Below are positions 31,321 to 63,215 of a stretch of 64,000 nt of DNA, piece by piece (within the stretch, counting starts at the first letter, position 1; the number at the start of each line of letters is the position of its first letter). A program made the position numbers and the translations under genes. The notes beneath the pieces were generated by a model. The model worked only from the letters and a program-made list of their open reading frames with translations. It ran no database searches and was not told the DNA's origin. Source of the stretch: Malacoraja senta (Eukaryota); assembly GCA_038087875.1 (NCBI GenBank), contig CM075988.1, forward strand, positions 8,620,001 to 8,684,000, written 5' to 3'.

Positions 31321-31349
31321 AGGGAGCATAGAGCAGCATAGGAACAGGA

Positions 31350-35796: not shown

Positions 35797-35874
35797 TTGC
35801 ATCATATAGTCATACAGCATGGAATAGGTCCTTTGACCCAACACAGCTACAATGAACATCAATCACTCATCTAG

Positions 35875-36921: not shown

Positions 36922-36944
36922 CATCTAGACTTCAGACTTCACTT

Positions 36945-40185: not shown

Positions 40186-40388
40186 TGGCAATTCAATTTC
40201 ACTCATTACCCCAATGATTCCTTTCCCAATTCACACTTCACCCTAACTTCATAAGGACTTGATGGTAAAACGATCATTAAATGCAAGTTTCGTTGTTTTG
40301 TCCCATCAGAATCACAAGGAATATTCACCATTCATTTGGGTAGGTGCTGGTATAACATTACTTGGTTGTTGGATGTAACCTGGTGACT

Positions 40389-40700
40389 GGGGCGGCACAG
40401 CGATCGAGTCATTGCCTTACAGCGCTAGAGACCCAGGTTTGATCCTGACTATGGTTGCTCTCTGTACAGAGTTTGTATGTTCTCCCCGTGACTGCGTGGG
40501 CTTTCTCCAGGTAGTCCAGTTTCCGCCCACACTCCAAAGATACACAGATTTGTAGGTTAATTGGCTTTGGTAAAGATTGTAAATTGTCCCCAGTGTGTAG
40601 GATAATGCTATGGGGGTCACTGGTTGGCGCGGACTCGGTGGCCAAAGGGCCTGTTTCCACACTGTATCTCTAAACTAAACTAAACTGAACTACACTACAC
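40389..40700 (+). mobile_element. HE1-like V-SINE, near full length
   Basis: ggggcggcacagc head, ggtttgatcc B-box, V-domain, (CTAAA)n tail. Confidence 0.9.
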
Positions 40701-43700
40701 TGCTCTAACACAGCATTTCATACTTTAGTGTCTTCATACACAGGGTTAATTAAGAAGACTTGGTTTTTTACGATCAACACCATCCTGGACCCCTTTGGTG
40801 ATGTGCGGACACTTGATCTCCTCCACTGCCCTGTCTCTGGACTGACAACATCAGTTTTCCTCAACAATTGTTTCCAGTAGACATGATGTAAATCCTGCCT
40901 GTGGTAAATGTCACTGGCTTCATTAAGAACTATCAGTTGAGACCGCACACTTGCACTGCATCTCCTGAGCATTTTCCCAGATGGAAGCTTTAAACTACTT
41001 CTCAATCAGCCAGGCATATTTCTTCAATTATTTAATAAAGTAATCCCAAGGTTATTCTTTATTTCTATTTCTGTTTAACGCTCACTGGCCATACTTGGGT
41101 AGCTTGCATAAGTGACCATTCTCCACATGTGGGCTTGGACAATGATCATTAATCTTTCATGGGATCTAGCCCATGGAGCTTAACCTTGTCCTTACCTGTG
41201 TAAATGTTACAGCAGTGCCTGCTGTTTCTCATCATTTGTTCTTTCCATGCAGTTGACATTTCTATGGCTGTATGTGTTGCTCATCCCTGGTAGCTTTTAG
41301 AAGGTGATGTTTGGCATCTTTAACGGGGAATGCTATTTGGCAGGCTCAGACAGTCACAAAGTTTGGGTAAAGTGTGATTCATAAACAGTGCTAGTAATGA
41401 AGATGGTCACAATAAAACTGGAGTAACTCAGAGGGTCAGGCTGCATCTCTGGAGAAAAGGAATAGGTGATGTTTCCGGTTGAGACCCTTCTTCAGACTTG
41501 ACCGGTGGTGCTGGTAATGAGTTGTACTGAGCTGGTGGTGGCCATCATTCCAAATAGAACCAATTGTGTACAGCCTTGCACGAAAAGCACATCCAGAACT
41601 TACCAGGTCCCTTTGCAAGAAAGGAACTGACTAGCAGATGTTCTGCTGCTGGACTGTACATGGAACAAGAATGACATCTGACCACACTGGAATTCCCCAG
41701 CAGAAGTAGAGTATTAGCTTAGGTGATCCAACACCAGTCAGCTCTGGTGTGGGACCGGAACCCACATTCATTAGAATCAAGACCTCAGACCAGTGGTGTT
41801 CCCATTACAATCATGGGAAGATGTTGCAATCCGTCCTATAGTTTGTATGGTGTATCAGGCTGAGGAGATGAGAGTCCAGTCTAGTGAAAGGGCCTGTGTA
41901 TGAAATTGAGGCAACCATTTTCATACACAGCTAAGTCCTACGAAGACCCGCTGAGTTACAAAGTAAAATGAGAAGACCGTGAGAAGAACAATTCTTGAGT
42001 ATCAAACTTTCACCACGTAATGAGGAACACTCGCTTGTTCTTTGATAAGGACCATGGAATAGATCCGTAGTTTGAAGAAAAAACAGCTCAAATTACTTAA
42101 CTCGGTGGGTCAGGCAGCATCTCTGGAGGACATGGATAAGTGACAAATCAGGTTGGGTTCCTTCTTCAGAATGATTGTTTGGAGAGTGGCGGTAGCGTGG
42201 GGTGGGGGGGGGGGGGTGGAGGGGGGGAGGAGAAAAGTTTGAAGGGAGGAAGGGCAGGACAAAACCTGGCAGTTAATAGATGTAAGGTAGACACAAAATG
42301 CTGGAGTAACTCAGCGGGACAGGCAGCATCTCTGGAATGAAGGAATGGGTGACATTTCGGGTCGAGAACCTTCTTCAGTCGCCGCTGCCGCCTGTTAATA
42401 TATGGATACAGGTGAGGGGAGTTTTTGATTGGCAGATAGTTGCACAAAGGCCAGAGATGAAAAGATAGAAGATGTGAATAGAGGTGGTGTAAGGACTTAT
42501 TTGCATAAGGGTGATTCCTGTGAGAATGCCTCTCACCAAAAGTGCAGCCTTACATTACACACCACAAAGTGAGTCTGAATCAGAGGGTATCAGAGAAATA
42601 TTACAACTGAACCATTATCGTGACAAAATTAATCAGTTTACAGTTTAGTATCTCCAACTTTAACACAGTGAAATTTAGTTTTAAGAACGTTGAATCATTT
42701 TACGTGACAGATACCTGCTGCATCTAAGTGCCGTAAAAATAACAATTTTGAATCACATCACGTTGTCAAGATTTTCCATTTAAGTACATGACCCATATCC
42801 TGAAATATTTCAAAGATCCAGTAACAAAAGAAGTCATTCCCAGGTTCACTAATCTAGCGGAATCACTGATTATAAAGTGTTAATGGTAGCTGGGGCTATA
42901 AATTGCATTAATTTCCTATACACCATCAAAAATGATTTTGTTTTCAATCACAAAATGTATAATACTGCTGAGTAATAATTCTTGTCCTCGACTATTTTTT
43001 CACAGATGGCAGCATGTGTTCCTGCTGATTGAATCATGAGAAGCTATTGAGTTAACAACTTTTTACCAATTATTTCAATTGTTTAATGGAGCATTTAGTA
43101 ACTGGGTTTTAAGTTTGGTTGGGAATCTGCCAAATAAGGATATTATGTAAATAGGAAATGCTTGCTGACTTCCAAATATTTCTGAAGTTCTGATATTCAG
43201 CCAGAATTAGTGATCTGTAACATTTGGTTAACATTTATCCAAACAATAGTTAAACCGTAAAAGGCCAAAAGTTCAATAAAATACTGCAGCCTAAAGACTC
43301 AGTGTGGGTTATTTTGAGTTTGGTGATAAGTGGAAAAAGAACAACATCATTTTAGTTGACGTACACATTTCCCTAATTTGAAGTCAATGAAAATGGAAAT
43401 CAGTGGATGGATAATAGAGACTGATCACTCCTTTTAACACAATTATAGAAAGTACTGTAAGATTACTACCATTACTTTATAAAGAGATTTCTTAGAACAG
43501 CTAATTACGCACAATTCTCACTATGTTAATATTTTCATTTTGTATTTAGCTTTCCTAAATTCACATGGTTTTAATAGTTTTACATTTCAATAATTTAATT
43601 TTAAAATATACTATTAATTAGAGAAGGTATTTAATTAATTTAGCTTGTGCAAAAGCAGATATGTTTAACTGTTCACTAAGTTAAAGGGGACAGGACCAGT

Positions 43701-43834
43701 GCAAAAGAAATACCTTACTTAGGAGTTGCGAATAATGTAATGTGTGGTTTGCCACAGAATGGGTAACTGTTTATCCAGCGAGTCACTTAATACGATAAGA
43801 ACAAATCACTGAAGAAAGATCCAGCTTCTGGTTG

Positions 43835-44212
43835 TGTAGGATGGAACTGCAGATGCTGGTTTACACAAAGATAGACACAAAATGCTGGAGTATCTTAGCT
43901 GGTCAGGTAGCATCTCTGGAGAAAAGAGGCGACGCTTCGGGTCGAGACCCTTCTTCAGTGAATGTCAGGGGAGAGGGAAACTAGAGGCATGATAATGATC
44001 ACCTCTTCCACGGCCAACATTCGACCACTGTGGACTCCACCTTTCTTGAGTTGTCGGTACCAGCTGTGATTTATTCTGTATCTTTTCATACCTTTTGCTT
44101 CTCTCTCCCCTGTCTCTCTCAGTCTGAAGAAGGGTCTCAACGCGAAACATCACCTATTCCTTTTCTCCAGAGATGCTGCCTGACCCGCTGAGTTATTGCA
44201 GCATTTTGTGTT
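43835..44212. mobile_element. Penelope pLTR inverted dimer
   Basis: Hammerhead-like cores on both arms (about 43930-43958 minus, 44122-44153 plus). Confidence 0.8.
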
Positions 44213-44589
44213 CAGCTTCTTTTCTGGTTTGGAGGAAACAAGGTCTACAAATAAAGTTACAGTGAAACTATGTCAAATGGAACCATTCTAAACACAAGAT
44301 GAACACCACTCTACTGCTGTGATGAAAACTTGTAGGTTTGAGTGAGAGCTTATACGTGAACAGTGAGTTACTAAAATACTCAGATTAGGAATTTGGAGTT
44401 CATTTTCTCCACTGTGTTCTATTAGGTAATATCAAGTTGATGTACTATTAGACCACCAGTGCTCTGAATGTTTCCCAATGATGCTGTTAGAAAAAAAGTT
44501 GTGTGTTTATCGGATAGTAGCGCAGCTGGTCGAGAGGCCAGAGACTCCGGTTCAATCCTGACCTTGGGTGCTGTCTGTGTGGAATTTAA

Positions 44590-45005
44590 TTTAGCTGAGT
44601 TTAGTTTAATGTCACATGTACCGAGGTGCAGTGAATAACTTTTTTGTTGCATGCTGTCCAGTCAGCGGAAAGATGATTACAATCAGGCCATCCACAGAGT
44701 ACAGATACAATATAAAAGGAATAACGGTATTCATAAGTCTGAGGGTAACGTTTAATGCAAGGTAAAGTCCAATTAAAGACAGTCCAGTAGATGGTAGCTA
44801 AGGACTGCTTTCTAGTTGGTGATAGGTTGGTTCAGTTGCCTGATAACAGCTGAGAAGAAACTGTCCCCAAATCTGGAGGTGTGTGTTTTCACACTTCTAT
44901 ACCTCTTGCCTGATGGAAGAGGGAGTGACCGGGGTGAAACTCATCCTTGTTTATGCTGGTGGTGTTACCGAGGCAACGTGAAGTGTAGATGGAGTAAATG
45001 GAAGA
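44590..45005 (-). mobile_element. Rex1/Babar-like 3' end
   Basis: Same family as 7113-7390; follows a SINE head at 44515-44585. Confidence 0.7.
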
Positions 45006-45744
45006 TTGCACGTTGCCCCGTTGCTGTCATTATCAGAACTCAAATGTAAAGAAAAGTGATAAATGCAGGATCAGCAGGCATCTTCAAAAACATGGAATCC
45101 CTGTAAAGGATCAATGCCTTCAGAGAGATATTTAGCCCGAAAAAAATGCATGATCCAGTTTCAGCCACTGCTGTTATCAGTGTAAGTGCAATGATTGACA
45201 GCCAAGGGATAGAGTTAAACTAAAACACAGCGGTTTAGAAAACCATTCCCTTGAATGCTAATCCTGCAGTCCAGCTCTCGCTTTTAAAATTACTGTATCA
45301 TTTGTCTAATAAGTAGCCAGGATTGAACTATTAAACAGGCTCAGGGAGATTCACAGAGGCAGAGATGTGGGAACATTAGGAGTGCAGCATTTAGCACCTT
45401 GTGCCTGGTCTGACACTCAGTAAGTACATGTCTGATCTGCACCTCTGCTCCATTCACCTGCCACAGTGCTATCCTTTGATACCTTTCCTCAGACAAAAAT
45501 CCATCTTTGAAAACCCTCATTAATTCAGCATCCAGAAGAAGCGAATTCCAGATTCCTTTATCTCGTGTTGACATTGGTCTCTGATTCCCTGTCTAATTGG
45601 CTTTGCTCATTATGTATGATGTCCCCTTATTCTTGATCCTACTACCTCAAGGAACGGTTTTGCTGGCTTCATCAAAGAGAATTTATTTAACATTATAAGC
45701 ATCTCAATCTGTCCAGAAATGTTTATTTTTCTTCTGCCCTGCAA

Positions 45745-46070
45745 ACTTTTCATACCTCTAGTTTCCCTTCCCCCCGACTCTGTCTGAGGAAGGAATTTGA
45801 CCCGAAATGTCACCTATTCCTTTTCACCAGAGATGCTGCCTGACCCGCTGAGTCACTCCAGCTTTTTGTGTCCATCTTCAGTGTAAACCAACATCTGCAG
45901 CTCCTTCCTACACAGTCAGTTTGTCAACTCTGTGAGCCATTGTAGAGGAAGGAAGAAAAGGAATAGATGATGTTTCGGGTCTTCAGATCTTGACCCGAAA
46001 CGTCACCTATTCCTTCTCTCCAGAGATGCTGCCTGTCCTGCCATTACGCCAGAATTTTGTGCCTATCTTA
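45745..46070. mobile_element. Penelope pLTR cluster
   Basis: gacccgaaatgtcacc..ccagagatgctgcc, repeated. Confidence 0.7.
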
Positions 46071-47083
46071 GCCATGATAGCCATTATAGGTATTCCACCT
46101 TCAGCTGACACGCAGAGGCAAGGACACATGACATCGTTTTTTTGTGCCTGAGCAGGAAGGTCCCTGGACTGATTGTCAGACTCTGCACCAGTCGAGCACT
46201 GAGCCCAGGATGTTCTGGGTTGTTCAGTTTGGCAGCACTTAATAAATCTACACAGTGGGTTGTCTGGGCTGCTCGAGTGATTAATTTGTTGGTACAATGA
46301 AAACAATCCAACTCCGAGAATTTGTTCCCTTTAGATGGACCTCCAAGCTCACTGCATACAGATCTCACACTGCTTTACAAGAGGTCAGTGCAAGTGCACA
46401 AAGCAGCCGACATGGGCAATATTAGAATAAACAACTTTTTAATGCAATGCCCAGAAGGCTGCCAATAGCCTCTCTAAGCCATAAACGACAGAGAATTGTG
46501 CAAGTCATTCATCCAAATTAAGGTTTTTGTTAACAATCAGTGGTCATTATCCACAAGATTGATGCAGGACTAATCAAACCTTTTAATGGACACCAGGCTC
46601 GTGCTGTTGGGCACTGAATTTAACGGATTACCATGTCAATGGATATTTCATATCCTTTCCTGTAACTGCTAAATAAATTGCTGTCATTTTTTTGGCAGAT
46701 TTATAATGCTCTTATTCACAAACCTAATGTGCAGTGCTCCACCTGCCTTGGTCAACATCGTGCCCAGATTTCCTTCATGATTTTATTTTTCATCTTTTCC
46801 ACAGTGCAGCCAGGGTTAATAGTTGTGCGGCAGGCAGATAGATGTATGTTGGATGCAACTTAATGAGCGAATGTTGATCTTTCCCCTTCCCTCGGCTCTG
46901 AGGATGTGACATGTATAGCTCCTCAACACCAACAATGAATGTACAAAAGTAATTGAATTTGTGCAGCATCTTCCAGAACCCCAGAATGGGTGGTCTATCG
47001 TCAGAGCTTACTTAGTTGGCCAAAGGGCCAATTTCCATGCTGTACAACACCATAACATTACTGGCACACACCAGTTACGGTAA

Positions 47084-47372
47084 CACGGTGGTGCAGTAGG
47101 TGACTTGCTGGCTCACAGCGGCAGAGACGAGGGTTCGATCCTGACTACGGCTGCTTGTCTGTATGGAGTTTGTCTGTTCTCCCTGTGACCAGAGTGAGTT
47201 TTCTTCGGGAGCTCTGGTTTCTTCCGACATTCCAAAGATATATAGGTTTGTAGGTTAACTGGCTTGGTATAATTGGAAATTGTCGATAGTGTTAGTGTGC
47301 AAGGATTGCTGGTCAGCACGGACTCGGTGGGCCGAAGGGCCTGTTTCCACGCTGTATCTTTAAACAAAACAA
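47084..47372 (+). mobile_element. HE1-like V-SINE
   Basis: A-box-like tggtgcagtagg, B-box GGTTCGATCC, CR1-type tail. Confidence 0.85.
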
Positions 47373-47399
47373 GTTATGTACCAGAGAGCTGCCAGAAAT

Positions 47400-47880
47400 C
47401 AAGAGAGTTTAATTATCATATGTACCAAAACAAAATAATGAAATTCTGACCTGCAGTAGCAAAACAGGTTCGTAAATACATAACTCAACAGATAACTCAA
47501 TAAAGTTTAATAAATATAAAACTCCAATATAGTTCAAAACAAAATAAACGTCCTAAGTCCTTCGTGCAACCAAGGCAGTTCATAGTTCTAAGGTTAGTTG
47601 ATATCCATAGTGTTCAATAGCCTGGTGATTGTTGGGAAGAAGCTGTTCCTAAACCTGGAGTCATAGTTCACAGACTATTGTACCTTCTTCCTGATGGTGA
47701 GAACGAAATGAGCGTGTGACCTGGGTTGTGTAGGTCCTTGATGATGCTGGCTGCCTTTTGAGGCAATGCCTCCTATCGATCCCTTCGATGGTGGGGAGGT
47801 CAGTACTTGTGTTGGACCGGGCAGTATCTACACAATCTCCTTCATTCATGGGCATTATAGTTGTCGAACCAGGCAGTGAA
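47400..47880 (-). mobile_element. Rex1/Babar LINE 3' part
   Basis: ORF 47661..47930 includes TDLPTIEGIDRRHCLK. Confidence 0.8.
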
Positions 47881-50800
47881 CACTGTAGTACCATTTTATA
47901 AGATTGGACTGGATTGGAAAATAAATGCATCTGTGTTTTGCCTTTTATATTTACTGTAAAAAATGATCACAGTTAAAAATACTCTTGTAAAATGGATTGT
48001 GTTGATTTTATAAATATTCTTAAGTGGTGCTCTCACTACTTTGAGCCAAGATTGAAATATTACTAAGATCCACTTCAGGGTTAAAGGTTGGTCAGCCCCA
48101 GTGACATCTTTCTCTCACCCTTGAACTGACAACCATTCTGTTTGTCGTTAGTAAAAGATCAGCTGTTTTGATATTACACATTCTCTCATTAAGATGCATC
48201 CATTACACATCTCACTAATGAGTAACTGTGTAGTGTAAAGGCCGTTAAGCAGTATACGTGTCCACGTGTGTGTGTGTGATATTGGATGATAGAGAATTAC
48301 TCCACCGTCTCCTGCCTTTCCAGCACCTGATCATTTGTGACTCTGGGGAGGTAGACTCAAGGTGCAGTGTTGCCTTCTGGGATAGGCCTCAGCTGGGCCT
48401 AGGCTTGGTAAGGAGGCCCACAGAGAGCACCTGGCAGCAGATATCTCCTTGATAGATGGATCACTGTAAAAAATCCGATCGCTTTGGTCATTGCTCCAGT
48501 CTCCAGCATGGGAATTGCCTCCCTCTGGGGAGAAAACGAGACACTGTTTACCCAATCAAAGTGTTTCTAACTGCTCCTGAGAGGATAATGGTTTTGGACT
48601 CGGGCCAAAGAAGATGAAAGTGTGTGTAAACTCTCTCAGCTGTCACCGACAGGAGGAATTAGAGGCACTCCATGAATTTCTATGGACATGGAAAAGCAAT
48701 GAACAAAGATTCTAGCTTGGACCTCAACATTCCTTCTTTCAAGATGATCGGTCCAGCAGACAATTTTTTAACCCTTTCCCAGTCCCTTGTGTTTACTAAA
48801 AGAACAGATTTTCTGTAGCAGAATATACCAGCTGCTGCAGAGCTATCAGTGAAGTTTGATTTCCTTATTGGGCCATTGAAGTTCAGCATGACTATAATAA
48901 CCGAAGTGTTGTGATATGACAAATATCAATTAGTGCTCTGGCAACTTTGGCCATCTGTCTTGGCTAAAGCAACGAACGGCATCTTGATGACAAAACCTTT
49001 ATCAGCACATTGTATTAAAAAAAACTACAAGATAAACATGACTGCCAAGAACTTGCACAAAAAAAGTAGAAATCTCTTAAATATTTAAATCCATTGTTAA
49101 TTCACTGGTCACAATTTAAAAAAAATTAATATGGATAGGATAGCTTTAGGGGGAAGATAGGCACAAAATGCTGGAATAACTCAGCGGGTCAGGCAGCATC
49201 TCTGAATAGTCGCTGAGATTGTCTATGTTCTGATATAGGCAGGAATCTTTCTGAGGGATTTGATGAGGGTTTCAGCAGAGGTTGACATGACCCTAATTGA
49301 TGAGGGACAGGGGCGGGCATTTTGAAGGTGGGCTTGAAGATCGTGAAAGTACACAAAGTGTTGGAGTAACTCAGTGGGTCAGTCAGCTGGAGAACATGGA
49401 TAGGCGATAAAAAGAGGGGAGGGGGGGGATTGTGAATTTTGAAGGCATGATACCACTTGCTGAAGAGAATAAGAGAATCATTTATAATAGGAGATCACAA
49501 AAGCACCAGGCGTGGAACATAGAACAGTACAACACCGGAACAGGCCCTTTGGTCCACAATGGCATTAATTTCAGTCTGAAGAAGGGTCTCGCTCCAAAAT
49601 GACACCCATTCCCTCTCTCCAAAGATGCTGCCTGTCCCACTGAGTTACTCCAGCATTTTGTGTCTACGATGTCTAACACAAACATACTGTAAGTTACAAG
49701 TAAACAACAGACTGCCATTAAAACATACACACTTTCTTGTCAACATTTAGATCAATTAATTATCGCAAATTTCCCAGCACTTTCACCTCAAAGAACATAG
49801 AACATAGTGCAGCACAGGGAAGGGCCCTTCAGCCTAAAATACCAAGATAAAGTAATCTCATCTGCTGCTCAAATACACATATAAGATCCATACACCTCCA
49901 TTCCCAGCATATCCATGTGGCTGTCTAAAAGCCTTAAATGCCACAATCCTCCTCCACCCCTGGCAACACATTGCAAGCACCCACCACTTTCTGTGTAACG
50001 TGATGAAAGGCAAAGTAAAACCAGAAAAGACTGGAAACACTGATCAGATCAGGCAGCATAACTCTGTTTCCTCTTTCCAGAGATGCTGCCTGACCTGCTG
50101 GGTGTTTCCAGAATCTTCAAGTGCCATGGAAGAGATAGATTTGGTGAGTTGTTTGTTGTGCGGCACGTCTGAAGAAGGGTCTCAATCGGAAACATCACCC
50201 ATTCCTTCTCTCCAAAGATGCAGCCTGTCCTACTGAGTTCCTCCAGCATTTTGTGTCTATCTTTGGTGTAATCCAGCATCTGCAGTTCCTTCCTACACAC
50301 TGCCCATTATTTCTGGATGTGCAGTCAAGATGGCCGACCTTCTTCGACAGCTGTTTGTTTTTATTTCTAATTGCTCATAATCATTAGCTGAAAGGGAAAG
50401 AAACAGAACTGCAAAAAAAGCAGCGCAACTGCCAAATCTCCACAGACAAGCAGACCAGACACACACATACCAAATGTGAAAAAGTGACAGCTGTTCTAAC
50501 AAAACAGCACAACAGACAGATGATTCTGCCCAGTGTGATCTCTATAGCCTCCAAGTGCAGCAGATGACTGGCATCATTTATTGGTGTCTGAATGCATTCA
50601 GTCTCCAACCTGTTGCAATCTCCACCAGTCACCTCGTTACATCGAAATCAGCTTCAAACCCATTTTTCAGCTGCGATTTTTGTCCTTTGCAGCTCAGTTT
50701 CTGGAGTAAAACAACACGTGTCCCTCACAGAACACATCCTGCTCAAAAAGTAGCAAGAAACAAATACCACAGATGCTGAAAGTGAATAAAAAGCATGTAC

Positions 50801-51479
50801 CAAACTGGTTTACGGACAAAAGAAGTCAGGCAACTGTGGGGATGGGGTGGGGCGGGGAGGATTTGTAAATTTGTAAGCGCCCTTTATGGGCGACTATTTG
50901 CATACCGTGGCAAAGTATGCAAGCAAAGAATGTTACTGTGGCTTGTCACATGTGACAATAAAGTATTCAATTTAATATCTGTCACACAAATCATTTCTCC
51001 TGCAGAGATGATGCTTGGAGCATTTCTGGTTTTGTGTTTCCCGGTTTCTCATTAAGTATTTTGGCTCTGTAGATAAGTGGACAAATTCTTCTCATTTTAA
51101 CTTGCAGTGCTGTGTCAGGACTGAGAACTCTCGGTCAAAGGACATTTTATAATCAAACATAAATGGCTGCACTTGATTGGTAAGGGTGGTTTTCAATTTG
51201 TTCGTTCTTGTGATTTAATCCTGGAAACATCAGTTCTTTCCTGACTGCATTGCCAAACCCCAGCTTCGGATCTCCTTTTTGGGTTTGGGCTAGAGTACTT
51301 CAGATTATTGATTAATCCAGTTCAATAACACAGTGAAGTGGAGACGATTGATTGATTACCGCATCTGGGGGTTGCAGTCCCTAATTTATGGCCTAGGCTC
51401 AGTTGATACTTAATGGTTGAGTTGGCTCCCTCATAGGTGCTCTGATGAATGCAAGAAATAAAATTATATCACACACACC

Positions 51480-51640
51480 AAAATGTATAAAAATGGCCTT
51501 TATTAAAATCTGACAATGTGCACTTTAACCACACGTGATTGTTTTCTATTACAAATCTCAAATTGTGGAGTACAGGGGCAAATTAATAAATGATGGGTCT
51601 TTGTCCCAAACATTATGGGGTCTTTGTCCCAAACATTATG
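51480..51640 (+). mobile_element. Tc1-like right-end fragment
   Basis: aataaatgatgggtctttgtcccaaacattatgg matches a Tc1-type TIR; 23-bp tandem duplication. Confidence 0.6.
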
Positions 51641-51651
51641 TATACACACAC

Positions 51652-51885
51652 ACAAGCATTCCCTGACTTACATAATCAATGATTTATGTAAACTTGCACT
51701 TAGGTAAGCAATTCTATAAGCCCACTGACACCCACGTGGTCTCTGCCTTAGAGCTCCCACATGGTCTCAACATTGAACACTAAATTTACGTATTCAAAGT
51801 ACTGTAGCACTCACTTTTTGACTTACGTAACATCCAACCCACAAGGGTCCATGGGACGTAACGTACGTAGGTCGGGGAGCATCTA
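51652..51885. mobile_element. Old Tigger/pogo-like MITE
   Basis: Diverged TIRs caagcattccctgacttacata / tacgtaggtcggggagcatcta; all mismatches are transitions. Confidence 0.45.
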
Positions 51886-52565
51886 TGTATGTATTAGATA
51901 TATATATATTATATAGACCTATAATGGGTCTGTAAACCAAGTACTCAAAAGATAACATAATAATAACAGAAGAAAGGTTCAATAAATTATAAAGTAATAT
52001 TAGTGCAAAACAAAACAAATTCCCTAAGTCCCTAGTGCAACAAAGATTGTTTGTATTTCAGACTATTGGCATTTGTAGTGTTCAATAGCCTGTAGTGTTC
52101 AATAACGCTAGATGGGAAGAAGCTGTTCCTGAACCTGGGAGGTCACGTTTTTCAGAATTGTATTTCTTCTTTCGCAATGAAATGAGAGAGTCGACAGGGT
52201 GGTTTGGGTTGTTGATGATGCTGGCTGCCTTTTTGAGACAGCGCCTCCTACAGATGGCAGGGCCGTCAGTGCCTGCGGTGGACACTTTTTATAATCTCCT
52301 TTGCTCCTGGGCGTTCGAGTGGTCAAAACAGGCGGTAATGCAACCAGTCATTATGCTCTCTACTGTACAGCTATAGAAGTTGAAGTGAATATTCATCGAC
52401 ATACCAAATCTCCTCAATCTTCTAAGGAAGTAGAGGCATTGATTGGGCTTTCTTTATGAATGCATCAATGTGCTGGGTCCAGGACAGATCTTCATAGATA
52501 TGCACGCCCAGGAACTTGAAGTTGGTGACTCACTCCATCACTGACCTGTCGATGAAGACAGGTTT

Positions 52566-53300
52566 TGTAGGAAGGAACTGCAGATGCTGGTTTAAACCAA
52601 AGATAGACACAAAAAGTTGGAGTAACTCAGCGGGACAGGCAGCATCTCTGGATAAAAGGAATGGGTGACGTTTCGGGTCGAGACCCTTCTTCAGACTGGT
52701 TAGGGATAAGGGAAATGAGGCATATAGACCACTGGGCTGTAAGCTGACCAAGCGAAATATGAGAAGCTGTTCCTCCAATTTGCGTTTAGCCTCACCCTGG
52801 CAATGGAGGAGACCTAGGACAGAAAGGTCTGTGTGGGAATGGGAAGGAGAATTAACATGTTTAACAACCGGGAGCTCAGGTAATTTTAGGCGGGCTGAGC
52901 GAAGGTGTTCAGATAAACGATTGCCCAGACTATGTTTGGTCTCGCCGATGGATAAGAGCCCACATCTTGAACAATGGATACAATAGATGAGGTTGGAGGA
53001 GGTGCTACTGAACCTCTGCCTAACCTGAAAGGACTGTAGGGATCCCTGAACAGGGTCGAGGGAGGAGGTATAGGGACAGGTGTTGCATCTTCTGTGTTTG
53101 CAGGGGAAGGTACCTGGGGAGGGGGCGGTTTGGGTGGGAAGGGATGAGTTAACAAGGGAGTTGCGGAGGGTACGGTCTCTGCGGAAGGCGGAAAGGGGTG
53201 GAGATGGGAAAATGTGGCTAGTGGTGGGATCACATTGGAGGTGGCGGAAATTTCAGAGGATTATGTGTTGTGTGCGACGGCTGACGGGGTGGAAGGTTGG
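52566..53300 (-). mobile_element. Penelope 3' fragment (GIY-YIG plus pLTR)
   Basis: ORF 52530..52778 begins EEQLLIFRLVSLQPSG; homologous to 59301-60270. Confidence 0.85.
52665..52696 (-). ncRNA. Minimal type-I hammerhead ribozyme motif in pLTR
   Basis: Minus strand: guCUGAAGAaGGGUCucGACCCGAAACGUCac. Confidence 0.65.
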
Positions 53301-53774
53301 TTCGTGGATGCTCAGCCCTTCTAAAGTCAACAATCGGCTCATTGTTGGTCTTACTAATGTTGAGAAAAAGGTTGTTGTTCTGGCACCATTCAATCAGGCA
53401 ATCGATCTCCCTCCTACCCTCATTATCCATAATTCATCCAACAACGTAGAACACATTGAGCTCGTCCAGGAGTGAAGCCAAACTGATGGGTGAGCTATCA
53501 CTTGAGTTTGCTTTGTAAGAAGTAATGGATTTCCCAAAGTGAGGGCAAGGGATGAAATGATAGACATCTGTGATGGTGGAGCAACAATGCTCAGGGGTCT
53601 TTGATCCTCTGGTGCTACATTGACTCAAATGTGAAAGTCAGAGGTATGATTTGTAAGTTTGAATTTGACAAGTAAATTGCTGGTGTTGTTAATAGGGAGG
53701 AGGGTAGTCAGCCTACATAATGATATGTGCACACAGGCCCTGTTTGAACATGTGGGGTATATGTTTCTCAGATT

Positions 53775-54580
53775 AAGTTTAGTTTAGTTTAGAGATATAG
53801 CATGGAAGCAGGCCTTTCGGCCCACTGAGTCCACACCGACCATCAATCACCCATTCGCATTAGTTCTATGTTTTCTCACTTTCACATCCACTCCCCACAC
53901 ACTCATGCTAATTAATCTATAAACCCGCACACGTTTAGGATGTGGGAGGAAACCTGATCGTCCAGAGGAAACCCACATTGGTACGGCTTGGTTCGGCAAC
54001 TTGAGCGTCCAGGAGTGGAAAAGGCTGGAAAAAGTTGTAAACACTGCCAGGTCCATCATCGGCTCTGACCTCACTACCATCGAGGGGATCTATTGCAGTC
54101 GTTGCCTCAAAAAGGCTGGCAGCATCATCAAGGACCCACACCATCCTGGCCACACACACATCTCACCGCTGCCATCAGGTAGAAGGTACAGGAGCCTGAA
54201 ATCTGCAACATCCAGGCTCAGGAACAGCTACTTCCCCACAGCCATCAGATTATTAAACACAACTTCAAACAAACTCTGAACTATAACAGCTATTGTACTT
54301 TATCTGTTTGTTTATTTATGTGTGTATATATATATATATTCTAAGGTATATGGACACACTGATCTGATCTGTATTTATGCCTAAAATATTCTGTTATGCT
54401 GCAGCAAGCAAGAATTTCATTGTCCTATCTGGGACACATGACAATAAACTCTCTTGACTTGACTTGACATGGTCACAGGTAGAACGTGCAAACTCCAAAC
54501 AGACAGCACCCGATGTCAGGATCGAACCCAGCTCACTGGAATGGTGAGGCAGCAGCTCTACCAGCTGCAGCACTGTGGCA
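53775..54580 (-). mobile_element. HE1-like SINE interrupted by Rex1
   Basis: SINE halves 53775-53978 and 54467-54580. Confidence 0.75.
53979..54466 (+). mobile_element. Rex1/Babar LINE 3' end
   Basis: ORF 54001..54279 (SRCLKKAGSIIKDPHHPGH..LPSGRRYRS); (CTTGA)n tail. Confidence 0.9.
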
Positions 54581-54719
54581 ACCTTACTGACTGGAAAGAA
54601 AATCTTGACCCTCTCTACATACCTGGCCCAGCCCATCCTTCTCTGCAGCTTGGTGATCCTACCCAGTGTCACCACCCCTACACCCAAACAGATGTGTCAT
54701 AGATGCACAGCGTAATAGG

Positions 54720-54880
54720 GTCATACAACATGGAAACAGTTCTTTTGGCCAAACTTGCCCATGCTGACCAAGAAGACCCATCGACATAAGTCCCAGCTGC
54801 CTGGGTTTGGCCCATATCCGTCTAAAATTTTCCTATCCATGTACCTGTCCAAAGCTCTTTTAAATGTTGTTATCGTACAT
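54720..54880 (-). mobile_element. CR1 3' end
   Basis: TTFKRALDRYMDRKILDGYGPN in ORF 54721..55350. Confidence 0.8.
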
Positions 54881-55279
54881 GTTGTGTGATGAACCACCAA
54901 GCACTCTGTTTGGGGACTTGCCCCTTTAGCACTCTGCAGCCCATATTTTACTTCCCTTGAAGAGCACACGGAAGAAACCTGCTTAATTCCAGGTCCGGGC
55001 ACTGGCGGGTGCAGAGGGTTGGGGTGGAATGGTGGTGTGGAGTGCAGCGGGATCGATGACGAGTGCATGCATATTGCTGATGTATCACTTGTACACGTGC
55101 ACAGACACCACATGCACAGGAAACAGACGCACACAAAGCCATGCACACATAAGCCAGATAAACATGTACACGGCATCAATATAATCAAATCATGCACAGA
55201 ATCCACATGTACATAGTGATTCCACATGCATATAGCGAATCCAAATGCATGTGCATAACACAGACTGCTTCCAGTTGCA

Positions 55280-55520
55280 GATAGAAACATAGAAACATAG
55301 AAAATAGGTGCAGGAGTAGGCCATTTGGCCCTTCGAGCCTGCACCGCCATTCAATATGATCATGGCTGATCATCCAACTCAGTATCCCGTACCTGCCTTC
55401 TCTCCATACCCCCTGATCCCTTTAGCCACAAGGGCCACATCTAACTCCCTCTTAAATATAGCCAATGAACTGGCCTCAACTACCCTCTGTGGCAGAGAGT
55501 TCCAGAGATTCACCACTCTC
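55280..55520 (-). mobile_element. Young CR1 3' end
   Basis: (ATAGAAAC)n tail; close match to 29688-29840. Confidence 0.9.
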
Positions 55521-56325
55521 TAAAGGGAATGTAAAGGGAAACTTGTACCTAAGTGTATATTAGCTCTGGAATGCTCCAATTTAGTCTTCAGTCTGTTCAA
55601 AAAGGAAAGATCTGCACTGCTCAGGTATAATCTGCGACTTCAAGTGAGTTGAAAGATGATGATGATGATGATGACACGTAATTGTCACTTGTTCCCAGCT
55701 AGGTACAGTGACATTCTTTGTTTTTGCATAAAAAGTACACAAAAGAGTCACCACCAAGGCATCGGCAAAGTTACAAAAAATACGCATCCCCTCTTCGTTC
55801 CCCCCATCCAGTCCCCATATATTCACAGGGGCCTTGTTTTGGTGAGGTCCTGGGGGATATCTGGTTATAGAAAGCCGAGTTTATTCAGCGAGAAATGTTC
55901 AAATCATCCTAACTCAGAGTGTGACTTTTTTATTTGTTCCTGAAAGCTGCAGAGAGAGCTGGGAGTTTGTGGCATTCATCCAATTGAGGGTACTGGGTTT
56001 CAGAGACAGCACGGAGACCCAAACTGGTAACCATCTGGTGGAGGTGCCTGCCCCTCTCTGCCTCGAACTGGGCTATGGGCCTTTTTATGTCTCTCCAAAG
56101 GGTTCTTGTGTCCCTGGGCTGGGCAGATGGGGCTGTGGATTTTTCCATAAACACTGCTGTCAGTGTGACACGCTGTGTGAGACTGGCACTGTGACTTTTA
56201 ACTGATGGCACCTAGTGGCTGGGTTGAGAATTCTGAAAATGACTGCCGAGTATTTTAATTAGATCGTACATCCTTTACCAAGTCAATAGGAAGAATTTCA
56301 CAGGGGAGGGAATGCTGGAGACCAG

Positions 56326-56622
56326 GACTTTAGACTTTAGAGATACAGTGCGGAAACAGGCCCTTAAGTCCATGCCGACCAATGGTCACTCCGTACACTA
56401 GCACTATCCTACACACTAGGGACAATTTACAATTTCACCAAACGCAATTAACCTACAAGCCTGTACGTCTTTGGCGTGTGGGAGGAAACCGGAGCACCCG
56501 GAGAAAACCCACATGATCACAGTGTAAACGTACAAACTCCGTACAGACAGCACCCGTAGTCAGGATCGAACCCGGGTCTCTGGCGCTATAAGGCAGCAAC
56601 TCTACCGCTGCGCCACTGTGCC
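56326..56622 (-). mobile_element. HE1-like V-SINE, young
   Basis: Intact A-box (tggcgcagcgg) and B-box (ggttcgatcc) on the minus strand. Confidence 0.9.
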
Positions 56623-56746
56623 GGAGGGTTTTGTTTCACTGGAGATCACTACTCACCCTTAATGGCTTCATAGTAAGTGGAGAAAGTAGGGGGAAAAGTG
56701 TTATTGTGAAAGCAGCATAATTTTGGTCTCATTTGCATCTCGTTAA

Positions 56747-57025
56747 GGGCAGCATGTCATGCAGCGATAGAGCTGCTGCCTCACAGCGCCAGAGAGCCAG
56801 GTTTGATCCTGACTACAGGTGCTGCCTGTACGGAGTTTGTACATTGTCCCTGTGACCATGTGGATTTTCTCCAGTTTCCTCCCACATTCCAAAGACATGC
56901 AGGTTTGTAGGTTAATTGGCTTCCGAAAATGTCCCCAGTGTGTAGGATAGTGCTAGTGTATGGAGTGATCGCTGGTCGGCGTGCACTCGCTGGGCCCTAG
57001 GGCCTGTTTCCACACTCTATCTCTC
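56747..57025 (+). mobile_element. HE1-like V-SINE
   Basis: gggcagca head, ggtttgatcc, CR1-type tail. Confidence 0.85.
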
Positions 57026-57264
57026 AGAACCTATGTCTTCCACGCTCAAAGAACATCAGTGAATGTTCAAATTTCACTCGTCCTATGGAAACAGACTCAA
57101 GATCACTCATGCAGTCGGGGGTTTAATGATCCTTGAGAAATATTTCCAACGTTAGTCCTTCTCCCTCTGTGACTCCCTTTCTTTTTTTAATCTCTTTCTT
57201 CTTTTGTATGCACTATCCTTGGCTTGTTGAAACAAGGAACTATAGATGCTGGTTTACACAAAAG

Positions 57265-57645
57265 GACACACATGCTGGAGTTGGGCACAAAGTGCTGGGT
57301 AACTAAGTGGGTCAGTAACTAAGTGCTTTAGTATATGAGCAGGGCACAAAGAACTGGAGTAACTCAGAATGACAATAAGTGCTCGGGTAACTCATTGTGA
57401 CACAAAGGGCTGGAGTAACTCAGTCTGACTTAAAGTGCTGGGGTAACTCAGTGGTGCACAAGGTGCTGGAGTAACAGTGTAACACAGTGCTGTAGAAACT
57501 GTGACACAGAGTGCTGGGGTAACTCAGTGGTGCACAGAGTGCTGGAGTAACGTAGTGATGTTTCAGGTCAGCGTCACTCCAGACCTGAAACACTCTGAGT
57601 GCTGGAGTGACGCAGTGTGATACAGAGTGCTGGAGTGACGCAGAC
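57265..57645 (+). repeat. ~28-bp minisatellite derived from the pLTR
   Basis: About a dozen degenerate units of (g)acacaaagtgctggagtaactcagtgt, inside pLTR arms 57232-57720. Confidence 0.8.
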
Positions 57646-57879
57646 CTAAAACATCACTAATCTACACACTCCAGAGATGCTACCTGACCCGCTGAGCTAC
57701 TCCAGCATTCTGTATCTTTGGCTCATTTACATTTCTCCTCTCCTCTCCCAAGACCACGCCACATTTTTTCTCTGATCTTCACTCTGGCAGTGAGGGTAGG
57801 GACACTTTGCTCCATTCCTTGGTCATGGTGACATCGTGCCTAGGACCCTCTACCTACTAAGTTTACAATAAAGGACAAT

Positions 57880-58122
57880 AAGCCAACAAACAGCTAATAA
57901 TGGCCTGTTTCCTTTATCATCGTCACTTTTTTGCATATCTTTCATTCATTGTTCTTTCTCTATATCATCGTCTATATCTCTCGTTTCCCTTTCCCCTGAC
58001 TAGTCTGAAGAAGGGTTTCCCATTCCTTCTCTCCAGAGATGCTGCCTGTCCCGCTGAGTTACTGCAGCTTTTCGTGTCTATCTTCAGTTTAAAGCAGCAT
58101 CTACAGTTCCTTCCTACACATT
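57880..58122 (+). mobile_element. Penelope pLTR
   Basis: ccctgactagtctgaagaaggg..ccagagatgctgcctgtcccgctgag. Confidence 0.75.
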
Positions 58123-58334
58123 CCGCCACAAAGAGCGATCAGGCAGAAAGAGACAGGAAACAGGCTTAGTGTCTGATCCAGGATTTGATGCAAAACCTCA
58201 TCAATTATGTATACATCTTAGAGAATTCATGTCTGCTTCCTCAATTTTACTGTCAAAATGCACCAGCTCCCTTTCCAAATGAACAACACAGCATAATATG
58301 ATTTGGAACAGATAATGTGTGAGATTGCAACCAC

Positions 58335-58672
58335 ATTAGAGCAGGAGCTGAAAGAGACACTGAATTAAACACAGCACTGTATATCTGACAGCACTGACCG
58401 CATGAGGTGGAGAGGTACCCTGAACCAACATGTCAAAACGGGGGAAGAGAAACCGTTGAAAGCAGCGGCAGACAAGCGGGCACACAGAAAGGAGCGCAGC
58501 AACTTCAACAAACCAGAGACCACACACAAATGTGACCTTTGCCACAGAGAGAGTCATTCCCGCATTGGTCTCTTCAGCCACAAGCGACGGTGCTCCAGCC
58601 GAGATTTGGAGCAAGCAGCCAACAACTAGGATGCATCACCCATGATCAGTCATGACCGAGGGGGGCCTACGA
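58335..58672 (+). mobile_element. RTE LINE 3' end
   Basis: ORF 58402..58629 (KRAHRKER..HKCDLCHRESHSRIGLFSHKRRC), the RTE C-terminal zinc-finger-like tail. Confidence 0.85.
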
Positions 58673-59300
58673 AAATATGTATACCTAGGATTGAAAACTT
58701 TTGATTCTGACATTTTTTAATAAATGATCCATTCTTTGCCCAAAGTGTAGAAAGTTTACAGTTGGCAATTTTATTTTTGGATGTAATATAATCTGGTGTT
58801 AATGCACCACGCTCCATCTTCTTCTCAACGTCTATTTAACAAGTGGGATCTGATTTCTGATCTCCTTCCCTTGTAACAAAATGTCTTATAGTTTTTGATC
58901 AGATGCAGTGATTCTACATGATTACCATCGTCTGAAGTGGAGATGAAGCAGAACAAGGTTGGCATATCAGGCCTCAGTTCCCTGCTTGAAGACTGTGCAG
59001 AATCAATTCAGATTTCTCAGCCTGCAGTTTTAAATGACCGCTGCTGGAAAATGTACAGTTATGAATACATTCCATGAGCAGATTGGGCTGCTGTCATTTC
59101 CCTGCCCCCTCAACCCTACTCCATTGACAAACCAATTCCAACCTCCATGTGCAAGGGCCATTAAATAAAATTACCGAGTAATGCCATGAAGAAAAACAGC
59201 AAGCAAGACAGAAAGAAATATGACACACTCCAAGATTTTTTTTTGTTTGCAGTAGCTTAGTTTACAGATACATATGGAAATAGGTCCTTTGGTCCACCAA

Positions 59301-60433
59301 AGGTAGACACAAAATGCTGGAGTGACTCAGCGGGACAGGCAGCATCTCTGGAGAGAAGGAATGGGTGACGTTTCGGGTTGAGACCCTTCTTCAGACTGAT
59401 ATCAGGGGAGTGGGCGGGACAGAGATAGAAAGTGGTCAGAGACAGTAAGACTGGTGGGAGAACTGGGAATGGGGAGGGGATAGAGAGGGAAAGCAAAGCT
59501 ATTTGAAGTTAGAGAAGTTAATGTTCATTCGGCTGGGGTGTAAACTACACAAGCGAAATACGAGGTGCTGTTCCTTCAATTCGCACTGGACCTCACTCTG
59601 ACAAAGGAGGGGGCCCAGGACAGAAAGGTCAGATTGGGAATGGGAGGGGGAGTTGAAGTGCTGAGCAACGGGGAGATCAGGTAAGTTAAGACGGACTGAG
59701 CGGAGGTGTTCCACAAAACGATCGCCGAGCCTGCGCTTGGTCTCGCCGATGAAGAGAAGTTGATACCTGGAACAGTGGATTCAGTAGACAAGGTTGAAGG
59801 AGATGCAGGTGAACCTCTGCTTCACCTGGGAAACTGTTAGGTTCCTTGGATGCAGTCGAGGGGGGAGGTAAAGGGACAGGTGTTTCGTCTCCTGCAGTTG
59901 CAGGGGATAGTACCGGGGGAGGGGATGGTTTGGGTGGGAAGGGACGAGTTGACCAGGGAGTTTCGGAGGGAACGGTCTCTGCGGAAAGCAGAAAGGGGTG
60001 GAGATATGAAGATGTGGCCAGTAGTGGGATCACATTGGAGGTGGCGAAAATGTTGGAGGATGTATGCGACGGCTCATGGGGTGGAAGGTGGGGATAAGGG
60101 AGACTCTGTCCTTGTTACGAATGGGGTTAGGGGGAGCAAGAGCGGAGGTGCGGGATATCGAGGAGACCCTAGTGAGAGCCTCATGTATAATGGAAGAGGG
60201 AAACTCCCGCGTCCTAAAGAATGAGGACATCTCCGATGCCCTGGTATGGAAAACCTCATCCTGGGCGCAGATCTAGACTACACTTCTTCCCATCCTGCTT
60301 CCTGTAAAGACTCTAGCCCCTACTCCCAATTCCAGGATGAGGTCACCCATTCCTTCTATTCAGAGATGCTGCCTGAGTTACTCCAGCATTTTGTGTCTTT
60401 GATTTAAACCAGCATCTGCAATTCTTTCTTACA
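59301..60433 (-). mobile_element. Penelope insertion with 15-bp TSD and 5' inversion, inside a SINE
   Basis: ORF 59499..59714 (EHLRSV..LPVAQHFNSPSHS) is the GIY-YIG C-terminus. TSD CCTTTGGTCCACCAA at 59286-59300 and 60434-60448. Confidence 0.9.
59365..59396 (-). ncRNA. Minimal type-I hammerhead ribozyme motif in pLTR
   Basis: Minus strand: guCUGAAGAaGGGUcucaACCCGAAACGUCac. Confidence 0.6.
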
Positions 60434-60712
60434 CCTTTGGTCCACCAAGTCCACACCAACCACCAATCACCAGTTCACACTAGTTCTATGTTATCCCAGT
60501 TTCTCATCCACTCCCTGCACACTAGGGGCAATTTACAGAGGCCAATTAATGGTCAAACATCTTCAGGATTCAGGAGGAAACCAGGGCACCCACAGGAAAC
60601 CCATGTGGTCATGAGAAGAACTCCATACAGACAGCACCCGAGATCAGAATCGAACCCAGGACTGGCACTGTGAGGCAGCAGCTCAACCACCTTGCGCCAC
60701 TGTACCACCCAG
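60434..60712 (-). mobile_element. HE1-like V-SINE (tail continues at 59257-59300)
   Basis: Reverse complement of the SINE consensus. Confidence 0.8.
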
Positions 60713-60754
60713 TTTCATTCAGTATTAATAGTTGAGGAACATGTAGGAATTAAC

Positions 60755-60935
60755 TTATTTGAAATGGGACCTAGGATCTTTTCCATCCATCTGAGAGGAT
60801 AGACTGACCTGCAGAATTATATCTAATTTGTAATGCAGCATCTCAGGCAATGCTGTATATTTTCTGCACTGCACAAGAATCTCAGACTAAATGTTTTGTT
60901 CAAATCTAGGTTCCCACAACCATCTGACTCAAAGA
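60755..60935 (-). mobile_element. DeuSINE-like relic
   Basis: ggatcttttccatccatctgagagg..gcagcatctc..ctgcactg..cccacaaccatctgactca. Confidence 0.5.
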
Positions 60936-61389
60936 TTCTGAAGAAGGGTCCCGAAGCGAAACGTCACCTATCCATGTTCTCCAGAGATGCTGCCTGACCC
61001 GCTGAATTGCTCCAGCAATTTGTGTCTCTTTTTTTGTAAGACAGCATCTGTAATTCCTTATTTCTGCATGAAGTTAGTTATGGTTAATCTTTAATCTCAA
61101 TTTGCATGAGGTAGGAAATACTCCTGAAAAAGGGTCCTGCCCTGAAATGTTGTCTGACAATTTCCCTCCACAAATGCCGCCTGACCCACTAAGTTCCTGC
61201 AACAGTTTGGTTTCTTTTAATTCACTGGATATATTTGTTTCTTCATGCCATAAGGTCATATGGTCATAAGGAATAGCCTTTCACTACTCTGTATGTTTCA
61301 ATATTCTTCATTCTTCTAAACTCCAGCGAGTTTGCTGCTCACTTCCTGCTGGGACCTAATCAGTGATTTATAAATGTTTCACACAACTT

Positions 61390-61495
61390 TGTATGTGTAT
61401 GTCTGTATATGTGTCTGAGTGTATGTTTCTGAGTGTCACTGTCTTGTGTCTGAGTGTCTGAGTGTCTGTGTCTGAGTGTCTGTGTGCGTATGTGT
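61390..61495. repeat. (GTGTCTGA)n / (GT)n-type microsatellite
   Basis: Seen directly. Confidence 0.85.
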
Positions 61496-62076
61496 AATTC
61501 TGTTCACAAGAAAGCAAATATTAGCAAATAAAAACGTTTAAATAAACACTCCACTGCTTTCTGGAGAAGAGTTTCACATTTTCTGTGTCAAAATATATCA
61601 TTCCCACACTCTGCTTCCTATGCCCTGGTCAATTTCTCATCTGCTCCTCCAACGCCACAGTCGTCAATTTTACTGACAATTCTATTATGTGGTACTTCAG
61701 TAAACACCATTGAAAATCCATATGCATAATATCAAGTGTGCTACTCTTCAAATTGTTCTGCTACTCTGTCAAAGAACTCAGTCAAACACAATTTGCCTTT
61801 CACAAATGTTCTGCTGGCTTTTATCTTTAATCCATATTTTTCCAAGCACCACCGGTCATTTCCCCCCCAAGATTACAATCTCCAAGAGCTTCTCCACCCT
61901 GACCTGACCTGTACTTGCTGCTGTCCTTCAGTATGTCGGCTGAACTTGAAGAGGTTGTTGCAACAGATCCTTTCACCTTTACAGGTTGTATCCCCTTTCA
62001 ACACTCTGTAAAAATCTCTCGTCCCCACATTGGCTTCATCAACAACCTCACAACCCGCAAAACCGGAGTGCAAGCA

Positions 62077-62372
62077 GGGCGGTACGGAGGCGCAGTGGTA
62101 GAATTGCTGCCTTACAGTGAATGCAGCGCCGGAGACCCGGGTTCGATCCGTACGGAGTTTGTACGTTCTTCTCGTGACCTGCATGGGTTTTCTCTGAGAT
62201 CTTCAGTTTCCTACTCCAAAGACATACAGGTATGTAGGTTAATTGGCTTGGTAAATTTAAAAATTGTCCCTAGTGGGTATAGGATAGTGTTAATGTGTGG
62301 GGATCGCTGGTCTGCACGGACCCGGTGGGCCGAAAGGGCCTGTTTCCGCGCTGTATCTCTAAACTAACCTAA
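62077..62372 (+). mobile_element. HE1-like V-SINE
   Basis: gggcggtacggaggcgcagtggtaga head, GGTTCGATCC, (CTAAA) tail. Confidence 0.9.
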
Positions 62373-62404
62373 ATTCCTAGGCACCTGGAGGAATCTCACA
62401 CGGA

Positions 62405-62584
62405 CACCTGGATGGCGTAGGTTGTCACTGGTACTGACTTCGGTAAATTCCATTGTCGTAGTCGGCGGCAGTCGCCTAAAAAATCGCCTAAGTGGCACAG
62501 GCCCATTAGTCCAGTCGCCGTTTTTTCGGCGACCTGCTACAACTATGACAGTCGCCTAAAAAATCGCCTAGTGGGACAGGCCCT
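62405..62584 (-). mobile_element. Second, truncated copy of the double-TIR Harbinger-type MITE
   Basis: Reverse complement of 17961-~18135, including both left TIRs; flank TTA. Confidence 0.85.
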
Positions 62585-62662
62585 TTACCCTCACCTTACA
62601 TTAACAAATGCGTGAAGTATTATTTTTATTTATAGACAAAAAGACACAAAGTGCTGGAGTAA

Positions 62663-63215
62663 AACCCCTGTCTCACGGTGCGAGCTGTCCCACGAGGTAC
62701 CCCGAGTTTAAACAAATTTAACTCGTGGTAATCACGTACGATTAACGTAGCGGGAACGTCGGAACTCGTGGACGCAACTTAGCGACTCTTGGCGCTAACA
62801 GCAGGTACCCGTGACACTTGTTAACTCTTGGAAAAATTCAAACATGTTTAAACTTTTACACGAGTAAAATGTACTCTTGAGGTTAAAATTTGAAACATTT
62901 CAACACGTTGTAAGAACGCATTGGCCCGTGCGTTTACCTTAGTGACTCGTGAGTCTACCGTGGGAACTCTTTAACTCAGCGGGCAGGCAGCATCTCTGGA
63001 TAGAAGGAATGGGTGACGGGATGACGTTTCCAAATTTCTGCTGTGTCTTTGTGTTACTCCAGCACCGTGTGTTCACTTTTTGTCAACCAGCATCTGCCCT
63101 TTCTCGTGTATGACATTATTTGTATCCGTGGCAGTTGATTGTCGCTCCCTTCAGTATCCCAGAGGGTCGGGACGGGACTGGAGTTGGGAGGGAAAGGTGT
63201 GGGGGGGGGGGGAGG
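62663..63215 (+). mobile_element. Truncated copy (one arm) of the foldback element
   Basis: TAA|AACCCCTGTCTCACGGTGCGAG..., colinear with 32887-33415. Confidence 0.85.

Follow-up and report, generated by a model that had tools for sequence, protein, structure and literature searches.

Behind a remnant of a Penelope-like element (PLE) in the genome of Malacoraja senta lies a short motif (52665..52696, minus strand) resembling a hammerhead ribozyme, and the locus raises the question of whether it is one, to which element it belongs, and whose RNA, if any, it cuts. We estimate with a probability of roughly 0.78 that this and similar motifs in the window (the whole analyzed stretch, 64,000 nt of contig CM075988.1) are minimal type-I hammerheads in the terminal module of a PLE, likely of the Neptune type, and that most copies are short decayed retrocopies predicted not to cut host RNA.

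An independent minimal-hammerhead descriptor (core boxes, 4-bp helix II, palindromic 15.2–16.2, UH, and helix I of at least 2 bp) applied to both strands of the window returned exactly five copies, the same five intact motifs, with the same coordinates and strands, that the preliminary description had proposed and for which it had suggested such a search. No matches were produced in 200 out of 200 Markov-resampled windows; a loose motif pattern yielded 25 matches against 7.4 expected, and a scan of the window with Rfam covariance models gave no hammerhead match at E up to 1. Two intact motifs carry GUC at the site: 52665..52696 (–), with C3 at 52694 and the predicted cut between 52667 and 52666, and 59365..59396 (–; copy 59394), about 130 nt past the ORF stop. 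Two others, constituting a second subfamily, have GUU, which is a poorer hammerhead cleavage site than GUC: 10351..10382 (–; copy 10380), with G–U pairs in both helix I and helix II, and 32597..32628 (+; copy 32599), situated in a short solo insertion. The fifth motif, 9324–9355 (+; copy 9326), lies within a head-to-head pair at 9213..9428 flanked by a 14-bp target duplication.

The motif opens with GU, the first strand of helix I, followed by CUGAAGA, an additional A, and helix II capped by a tetraloop; then come GAAA, CG, U, a C or U, and finally the second strand of helix I, AC or GC. All five intact copies contain the catalytic boxes (CUGANGA, GAAA, and UH), the unpaired base between A9 and 10.1, and the G10.1–C11.1 pair. 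Helix III is replaced by palindromic 15.2–16.2, which is CG in five copies out of five, in agreement with the earlier claim of reduction to an ACGU palindrome. The claimed pairing of helix II also stands, but the quoted 5-bp stems do not: such a stem would leave a 2-nt loop, and therefore helix II is assigned 4 bp with a tetraloop. Similarly, of the 2–4 bp suggested for helix I, 2 bp is observed in four intact copies, while the upper range is not; in copy 9326 helix I has 5 bp, the extra pairs being supplied by the adjacent inverted copy. We also considered an extended bulged helix I and rejected it, as a 6–7 bp pairing could be drawn by eye for two UTR types only. The helix-II loop does vary over a paired stem, as previously stated; still, two of its four positions form a CpG whose mismatch frequency (0.35) is like that of other CpGs, so a part of this variation is decay, and the other two positions, with mismatch 0.33, fit differences between subfamilies.

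Minimal hammerheads of PLE pseudo-LTRs (pLTRs) were published in 2014 (PMC4209133), and the motifs in the window have every sequence feature of this class that was examined: the core boxes, the extra base after A9, G10.1–C11.1, palindromic 15.2–16.2 in place of helix III, location in a terminal repeat, a predominance of solo copies, and opposite-strand pairs. In the Schistosoma families helix II has 7–8 bp and helix I 4–5 bp, both longer than the 4 and 2 bp seen here; helix I is thus at the low end of the range from 2 bp in the fly (D. virilis) variant to 4–5 bp in S. mansoni. Canonical type-I hammerheads from Rfam share the catalytic core and topology, but possess helix III and a 6-bp helix I, both lacking here. 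If this window is typical, the density would be far above the 4,000–9,000 copies per genome of coelacanth and Xenopus (PMC4209133). Two supplementary files of that paper were searched and contain no shark, skate or Callorhinchus term, and we found no paper on cartilaginous-fish hammerheads in a search of the open-access literature; shark or ray motifs may be listed in other supplementary data.

The element itself is recognizable from the ORF remnants found directly upstream, on the same strand, of three out of five intact motifs (52694, 59394, and 10380), so that the motif sits in the pLTR, in sense orientation to an RT–GIY-YIG ORF. The 3' remnant at 52713..53297 (–), identified by translation and protein comparison, comprises a CX4CX2C linker and the GIY-YIG endonuclease, is 56% identical to amino acids 254–447 of a shark protein (P0001), and lacks the final codons and most of the UTR. 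The ORF at 52530–53252 (–) has 57–61% identity to proteins from Rhincodon, Mobula, Stegostoma, and Chiloscyllium, with a GIY-YIG Pfam match below cutoff (E 0.019). The remnant is followed by the pLTR 3' module (52565..52697, minus strand, from the profile), consisting of the hammerhead, a conserved block to approximately +90 and a tail of about 35 nt, optional in these elements, that reaches +128, positions here and below being counted from C3 of the hammerhead core. A second, frameshifted remnant (59412..60272, minus strand, by protein comparison) retains the C-terminal part of RT, the linker, GIY-YIG, and a pyrimidine-rich UTR, with an inverted partner module at 60340–60433 (+), while upstream of motif 10351..10382 (–) an ORF end is found at 10484–10636 and an inverted partner module at 10643–10731 (+). 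No remnant of the RT core was found in the window. ORF remnants at 12957–13592 (+), which matches Pfam ALKBH8_N, and at 26374–26868 (–) are presumably LINE-like.

The linker motif CX2-5CxxC occurs in Neptune and Nematis and is absent in Penelope/Poseidon (10.1101/2021.04.23.441226). The CX4CX2C of our element matches this Neptune-type criterion, together with the C-terminal GIY-YIG, and suggests that the element is likely of the Neptune type, a label given by one linker motif, not by a tree. A comparable system is the Poseidon element PAc of Anolis (Frangieh et al., 2024; PMC11167929), which likewise has a pLTR hammerhead, two 3' ends 30–40 nt apart, and copies apparently made from uncleaved RNA. 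It differs in its clade, Penelope/Poseidon, and in having an ORF that starts inside helix II, whereas here, in those tailed copies that were inspected, translation from the first ATG past the motif would meet a stop after 17 codons.

Conservation of the motif was assessed between families. A metagenome pattern search with helix II left free produced 108 loci in 30 clusters, and all three free helix-II pairs are formed in 15 of the 30 unselected clusters, compared to about 5% per cluster by chance, this count retaining bacterial-looking chance matches. A weak match to the PLE endonuclease region was found upstream on the same strand in three of the 108 loci, and on the opposite strand in one; no matches to the motif were observed in viral contigs. 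In an alignment of 15 sequences, two helix-II pairs have two-sided changes, and the structure scores 0.38, compared with 0.03–0.11 for slid structures; as only three of the sequences are from the window and the other 12, representing metagenome families, were chosen for paired helix II, the paired fraction of this set is circular. Among the intact window copies themselves, changes in helix II are one-sided only. The combination of the sense-strand position behind a GIY-YIG remnant and covariation of helix II across families bears out the identification as PLE minimal type-I hammerheads made in the preliminary description. One metagenome locus (L002) and 51 related loci form a large unrelated family of minimal hammerheads, in which many copies break at the 5' edge of the ribozyme or adjoin an inverted partner. 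This view is biased by the search pattern, which forces GT before the core, and the upstream diversity of the 52-locus family was accordingly given no weight as evidence.

Within the window, several types of upstream UTR cannot be aligned with each other, and what they have in common is limited to TCAGT, the motif, and the adjoining downstream block; the motif is therefore conserved between master elements. The excess conservation of the core between subfamilies that the preliminary description had called for is thus seen in part: the motif is kept, but the block behind it is conserved too.

A profile search, with the profile seeded with 12 window copies, identified 67 fragments of one Penelope end-module on both strands (2227..63097; 5,858 bases in total) and none in the reversed window. 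Thirty-seven fragments are on the minus strand and 30 on the plus strand (p = 0.46). The core is spanned by 29 fragments, five intact and 24 decayed, well in line with the more than ten decayed copies mentioned earlier. Copies stop near +90 or extend to +128, and tails of 30–40 nt are known for PLEs (PMC11167929, PMC3846280). Hence features of EN+ PLE insertion are present: a 30–40 bp tail in some copies, and pLTRs that are inverted head-to-head and bounded by target duplications. Module neighbors within 200 nt form 16 head-to-head, 2 tail-to-tail, and 14 direct pairs; when three copies belonging to a single composite repeat are set aside, 13 head-to-head versus 2 tail-to-tail pairs are left (p = 0.007). 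Clear target duplications, of 14 and 10 bp, surround two of the seven units examined. In a separate search for target duplications only the insertion at 32599, with a 17-bp duplication and a 34-nt filler, scored above the null range, the other candidates resting on their position directly behind the 3' end. Fillers of 6–34 nt separate the motif from the candidate target duplication at 32599 (+), 41495 (–), 42378 (–), 11071 (–), and 3757 (+); that at 32599 includes an ATG and looks exon-like. At 42071–42380 (–) a short module copy interrupts a second copy within its UTR; the insertion is accompanied by a duplication of 11 bp, and a GC-rich filler of 13 nt precedes the motif.

The profile also revealed a 66-bp tandem array of module pieces from +19 to +84, hence with the 3' half of the hammerhead only (31344..31921, minus strand), which sits behind one decayed whole motif and is interrupted in the middle by a second-subfamily inverted insert (31556–31749). 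A decayed array of approximately 28-bp units from the module part +61 to +90 is seen at 57229–57719. Rearranged module pieces are also contained in a CpG-rich composite repeat with three copies (about 33000–33400, 34080–34590, and 62660–63200), the first two of which point toward one another, with a head-to-head PLE pair between them. Six matches to Rfam microRNA families, all far below gathering scores, include four on module copies or inverted pairs; of the matches at 50030–50112, 31569–31726, 33612–33736, 34399–34446, and 7352–7475, most are inverted-repeat hairpins, which would yield long double-stranded RNA if transcribed.

Such arrays may be compared to non-LTR retrozymes (10.64898/2026.07.22.740005), which are also of PLE pLTR origin, are commonly monomeric, and are present in the one chondrichthyan genome included in that survey. 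Retrozymes are defined there by at least two tandem units with whole ribozymes, while the only array in the window repeats the 3' half, and no two consecutive units each with a complete hammerhead are found in the window. In other parts of two genomes we observe head-to-tail joints of 94–101 nt (59397 to 59300/59304), possible retrozyme-like whole-module dimers, which could be active.

Decay of the copies is concentrated at CpGs. Changes of the CpG type at 11.1/G12 or in the palindrome are found in 19 out of 29 core-spanning copies, and mismatch at these CpGs is 0.31 and 0.37, similar to the 0.30 at a CpG outside the ribozyme. Inserted copies thus appear to decay without selection, fastest at CpGs overlapping G12 and the palindrome. 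The non-CpG mismatch is lower in the core, 15/266 (0.056), than in the downstream block, 96/985 (0.097; p = 0.04); this could reflect selection on copies, a comparison confounded by the core-bearing profile seeds and by subfamily differences in the block. In nearest-neighbor folding, which ignores tertiary contacts, magnesium, and chaperones, the probability of helix II is at most 0.08 for all five intact copies in 300-nt context, the best values for 43-nt pieces being 0.64 and 0.30, and copy 9326 is predicted to be trapped in a long hairpin. When a dimer is modeled, the 3.1 kcal/mol gained from helix III is set against a cost of about 3.2 kcal/mol for each helix I, while competing pairings are predicted to be 5–12 kcal/mol more stable than the helix-III dimer. 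Hence, the intact copies are predicted not to fold or cut alone.

What, then, could the motif do? Two explanations compete with a function for the element. The preliminary description had suggested that so many copies form a real load, cutting host pre-mRNAs, whether distant copies pair with each other or act in trans. Its premise of high copy number is upheld by the 67 fragments in 64 kb and, moreover, by the 257,790 contigs of one sequencing run (X1) that match a single 1.1-kb copy; extrapolation from this one window, if typical, gives about 78 intact motifs per Mb, a dimer requires just the 5' half from one copy and the 3' half from another, and related Xenopus retrozymes are depleted from introns (10.64898/2026.07.22.740005). 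The proposed action in pre-mRNAs is not supported by the rest of the data: 24 of the 29 core-spanning copies are broken, fragments are not biased toward either strand (a weak test, as the gene direction is not known), predicted folding is unfavorable, and the intact copies, which occur on both strands, have their nearest intact same-strand partners 6.7 kb (52694/59394) and 23 kb (9326/32599) away. No host exon was found among 300 of the 350 mostly non-repeat ORFs of at least 45 amino acids, which gave one sub-cutoff zinc-finger match, a scan that cannot separate introns from intergenic DNA; a possible host exon follows a pyrimidine tract and AG at 61925–61990 (+), without Pfam support. Published experiments also speak against such a load, as PLE minimal hammerheads are inactive as monomers and weak as dimers in vitro (PMC4209133), the anole element has no RNA-seq reads ending at the cut site (PMC11167929), and only one of nine Xenopus retrozyme dimers was cleaved (10.64898/2026.07.22.740005). 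Cleavage of host RNA by these copies is unlikely, and a genuine pre-mRNA load very much so. Alternatively, the motif might be a vestige that never cleaves and is conserved only via overlap with an element promoter or protein-binding site. This would explain why conservation is about equal in the core and in the block that follows the ribozyme, and is consistent with unimpaired in vitro insertion of anole hammerhead mutants (PMC11167929) and with Naiad elements thriving without hammerheads (10.1101/2021.04.23.441226). Nevertheless, helix II covaries across unrelated families whose downstream sequence is unrelated, and the anole motif does cleave, only with protein and in dependence on C3–G8 (PMC11167929), so we consider a vestige quite improbable.

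The most likely explanation is that the ribozyme serves the element by weak, protein-assisted or dimer cleavage of the element's own RNA. Selection would keep the motif in a few active master elements, whose RNA would be cut after GUC or GUU as a dimer joined by its ACGU palindromes, in all likelihood only when an element protein assists, as the behavior of known systems suggests (PMC4209133, PMC11167929). Reverse transcription likely begins at about +90 or +128, the putative priming sites downstream of the motif, and RT would copy uncleaved RNA through the motif, usually stopping 2–3 bases before C3 and often switching strand, which would produce head-to-head pairs. In this way the genome would be filled with short hammerhead-headed copies decaying at CpGs.

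The 5' ends of the copies are of particular interest. Most copies, both in the window and among contigs from two species, have about 95–130 bp and start 2–3 bases before the catalytic core, at the TCAGT. In the window, 19 of 29 copies lose similarity 0–5 bases before C3, without the pyrimidine-rich UTR, ten of them at –2/–3, and some of these adjoin an inverted partner, whereas none of the 67 fragments starts at the cleavage site. Contigs of four sequencing runs were aligned to 59200–60300 at 80% likeness. Summed depth, which is not copy number, is 55–72 million over the module versus 0.8–1.6 million just upstream (runs X1 and X3). The upstream loose ends among those listed for these two runs are at –2, –3, and –5, and –1 and +28 may also be common. 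Unrelated sequence is entered at –2 and –3 by at least 1,182 and at least 1,184 contigs in X1, and by at least 1,497 and at least 1,508 contigs in X3, with flank agreement of 0.30–0.31, while the loose ends at –5 enter a shared other UTR. The commonest first flank base at –2/–3 is G on the element strand in five of the five rows listed, the window being 57% A+T. A lone extra G is seen at two joints among those listed in the contig alignments, and, in the window, in five of the ten copies starting at –2/–3, with one G inside a microhomology; the excess in the window is not significant (p = 0.19 for 5/11).

TCAGT fits the initiator consensus. An initiator-like TCACT is noted in a rotifer pLTR (PMC3846280), and an extra G is reported as a mark of capped full-length L1 insertions (PMC11702581). 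We tentatively propose, as a possibility with the odds somewhat against it, that the element's RNA opens directly with the ribozyme, Pol II initiating at A (or the next G) of TCAGT, three bases before C3. Cleavage would then decap the RNA by removing its first ~30 bases; RT, primed at +90/+128, would reach the cap, add a cap-templated G, and jump, yielding hundreds of thousands of ribozyme-headed mini-copies whose ends would record the start and priming sites. Such a start would also account for a helix I of just 2 bp and for the sharpness of the copies' 5' ends. We found no cap-start model for PLEs in the open-access literature searched.

A competing explanation sees in the same boundary a 3' splice site, made up of a pyrimidine tract, CAG, and UCUGA, comparable to that of Penelope in Drosophila virilis; short copies would then stem from RNAs whose ribozyme had been joined by splicing to other exons, which complete helix I. 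The fly intron indeed finishes at helix I (PMC4209133), a pyrimidine-rich tract lies upstream in ten of the 29 copies, exon ends (AG or G) would mimic the –2/–3 boundaries, and the 6–34-nt fillers in five copies could be seen in the same light. On the other hand, truncated copies have no common upstream exon, no such joint occurs among the 15 joints listed out of 687, and the flank letter at –4 is mostly G in three runs, while exon ends following the splice consensus would favor A at that position. We hold a splice site to be unlikely, yet it stays in contention.

As a ribozyme discovery these motifs are ordinary, since the motif itself, its place in Penelope-like elements, and the weak activity of dimers are already published. 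Still, in their many short, sharp-ended copies nature has recorded the RNA template. Should the copies' 5' ends indeed be the capped start of the transcript, three bases ahead of the core, the ribozyme would be a self-decapping switch, a role beyond that of a cutter of tandem precursors.
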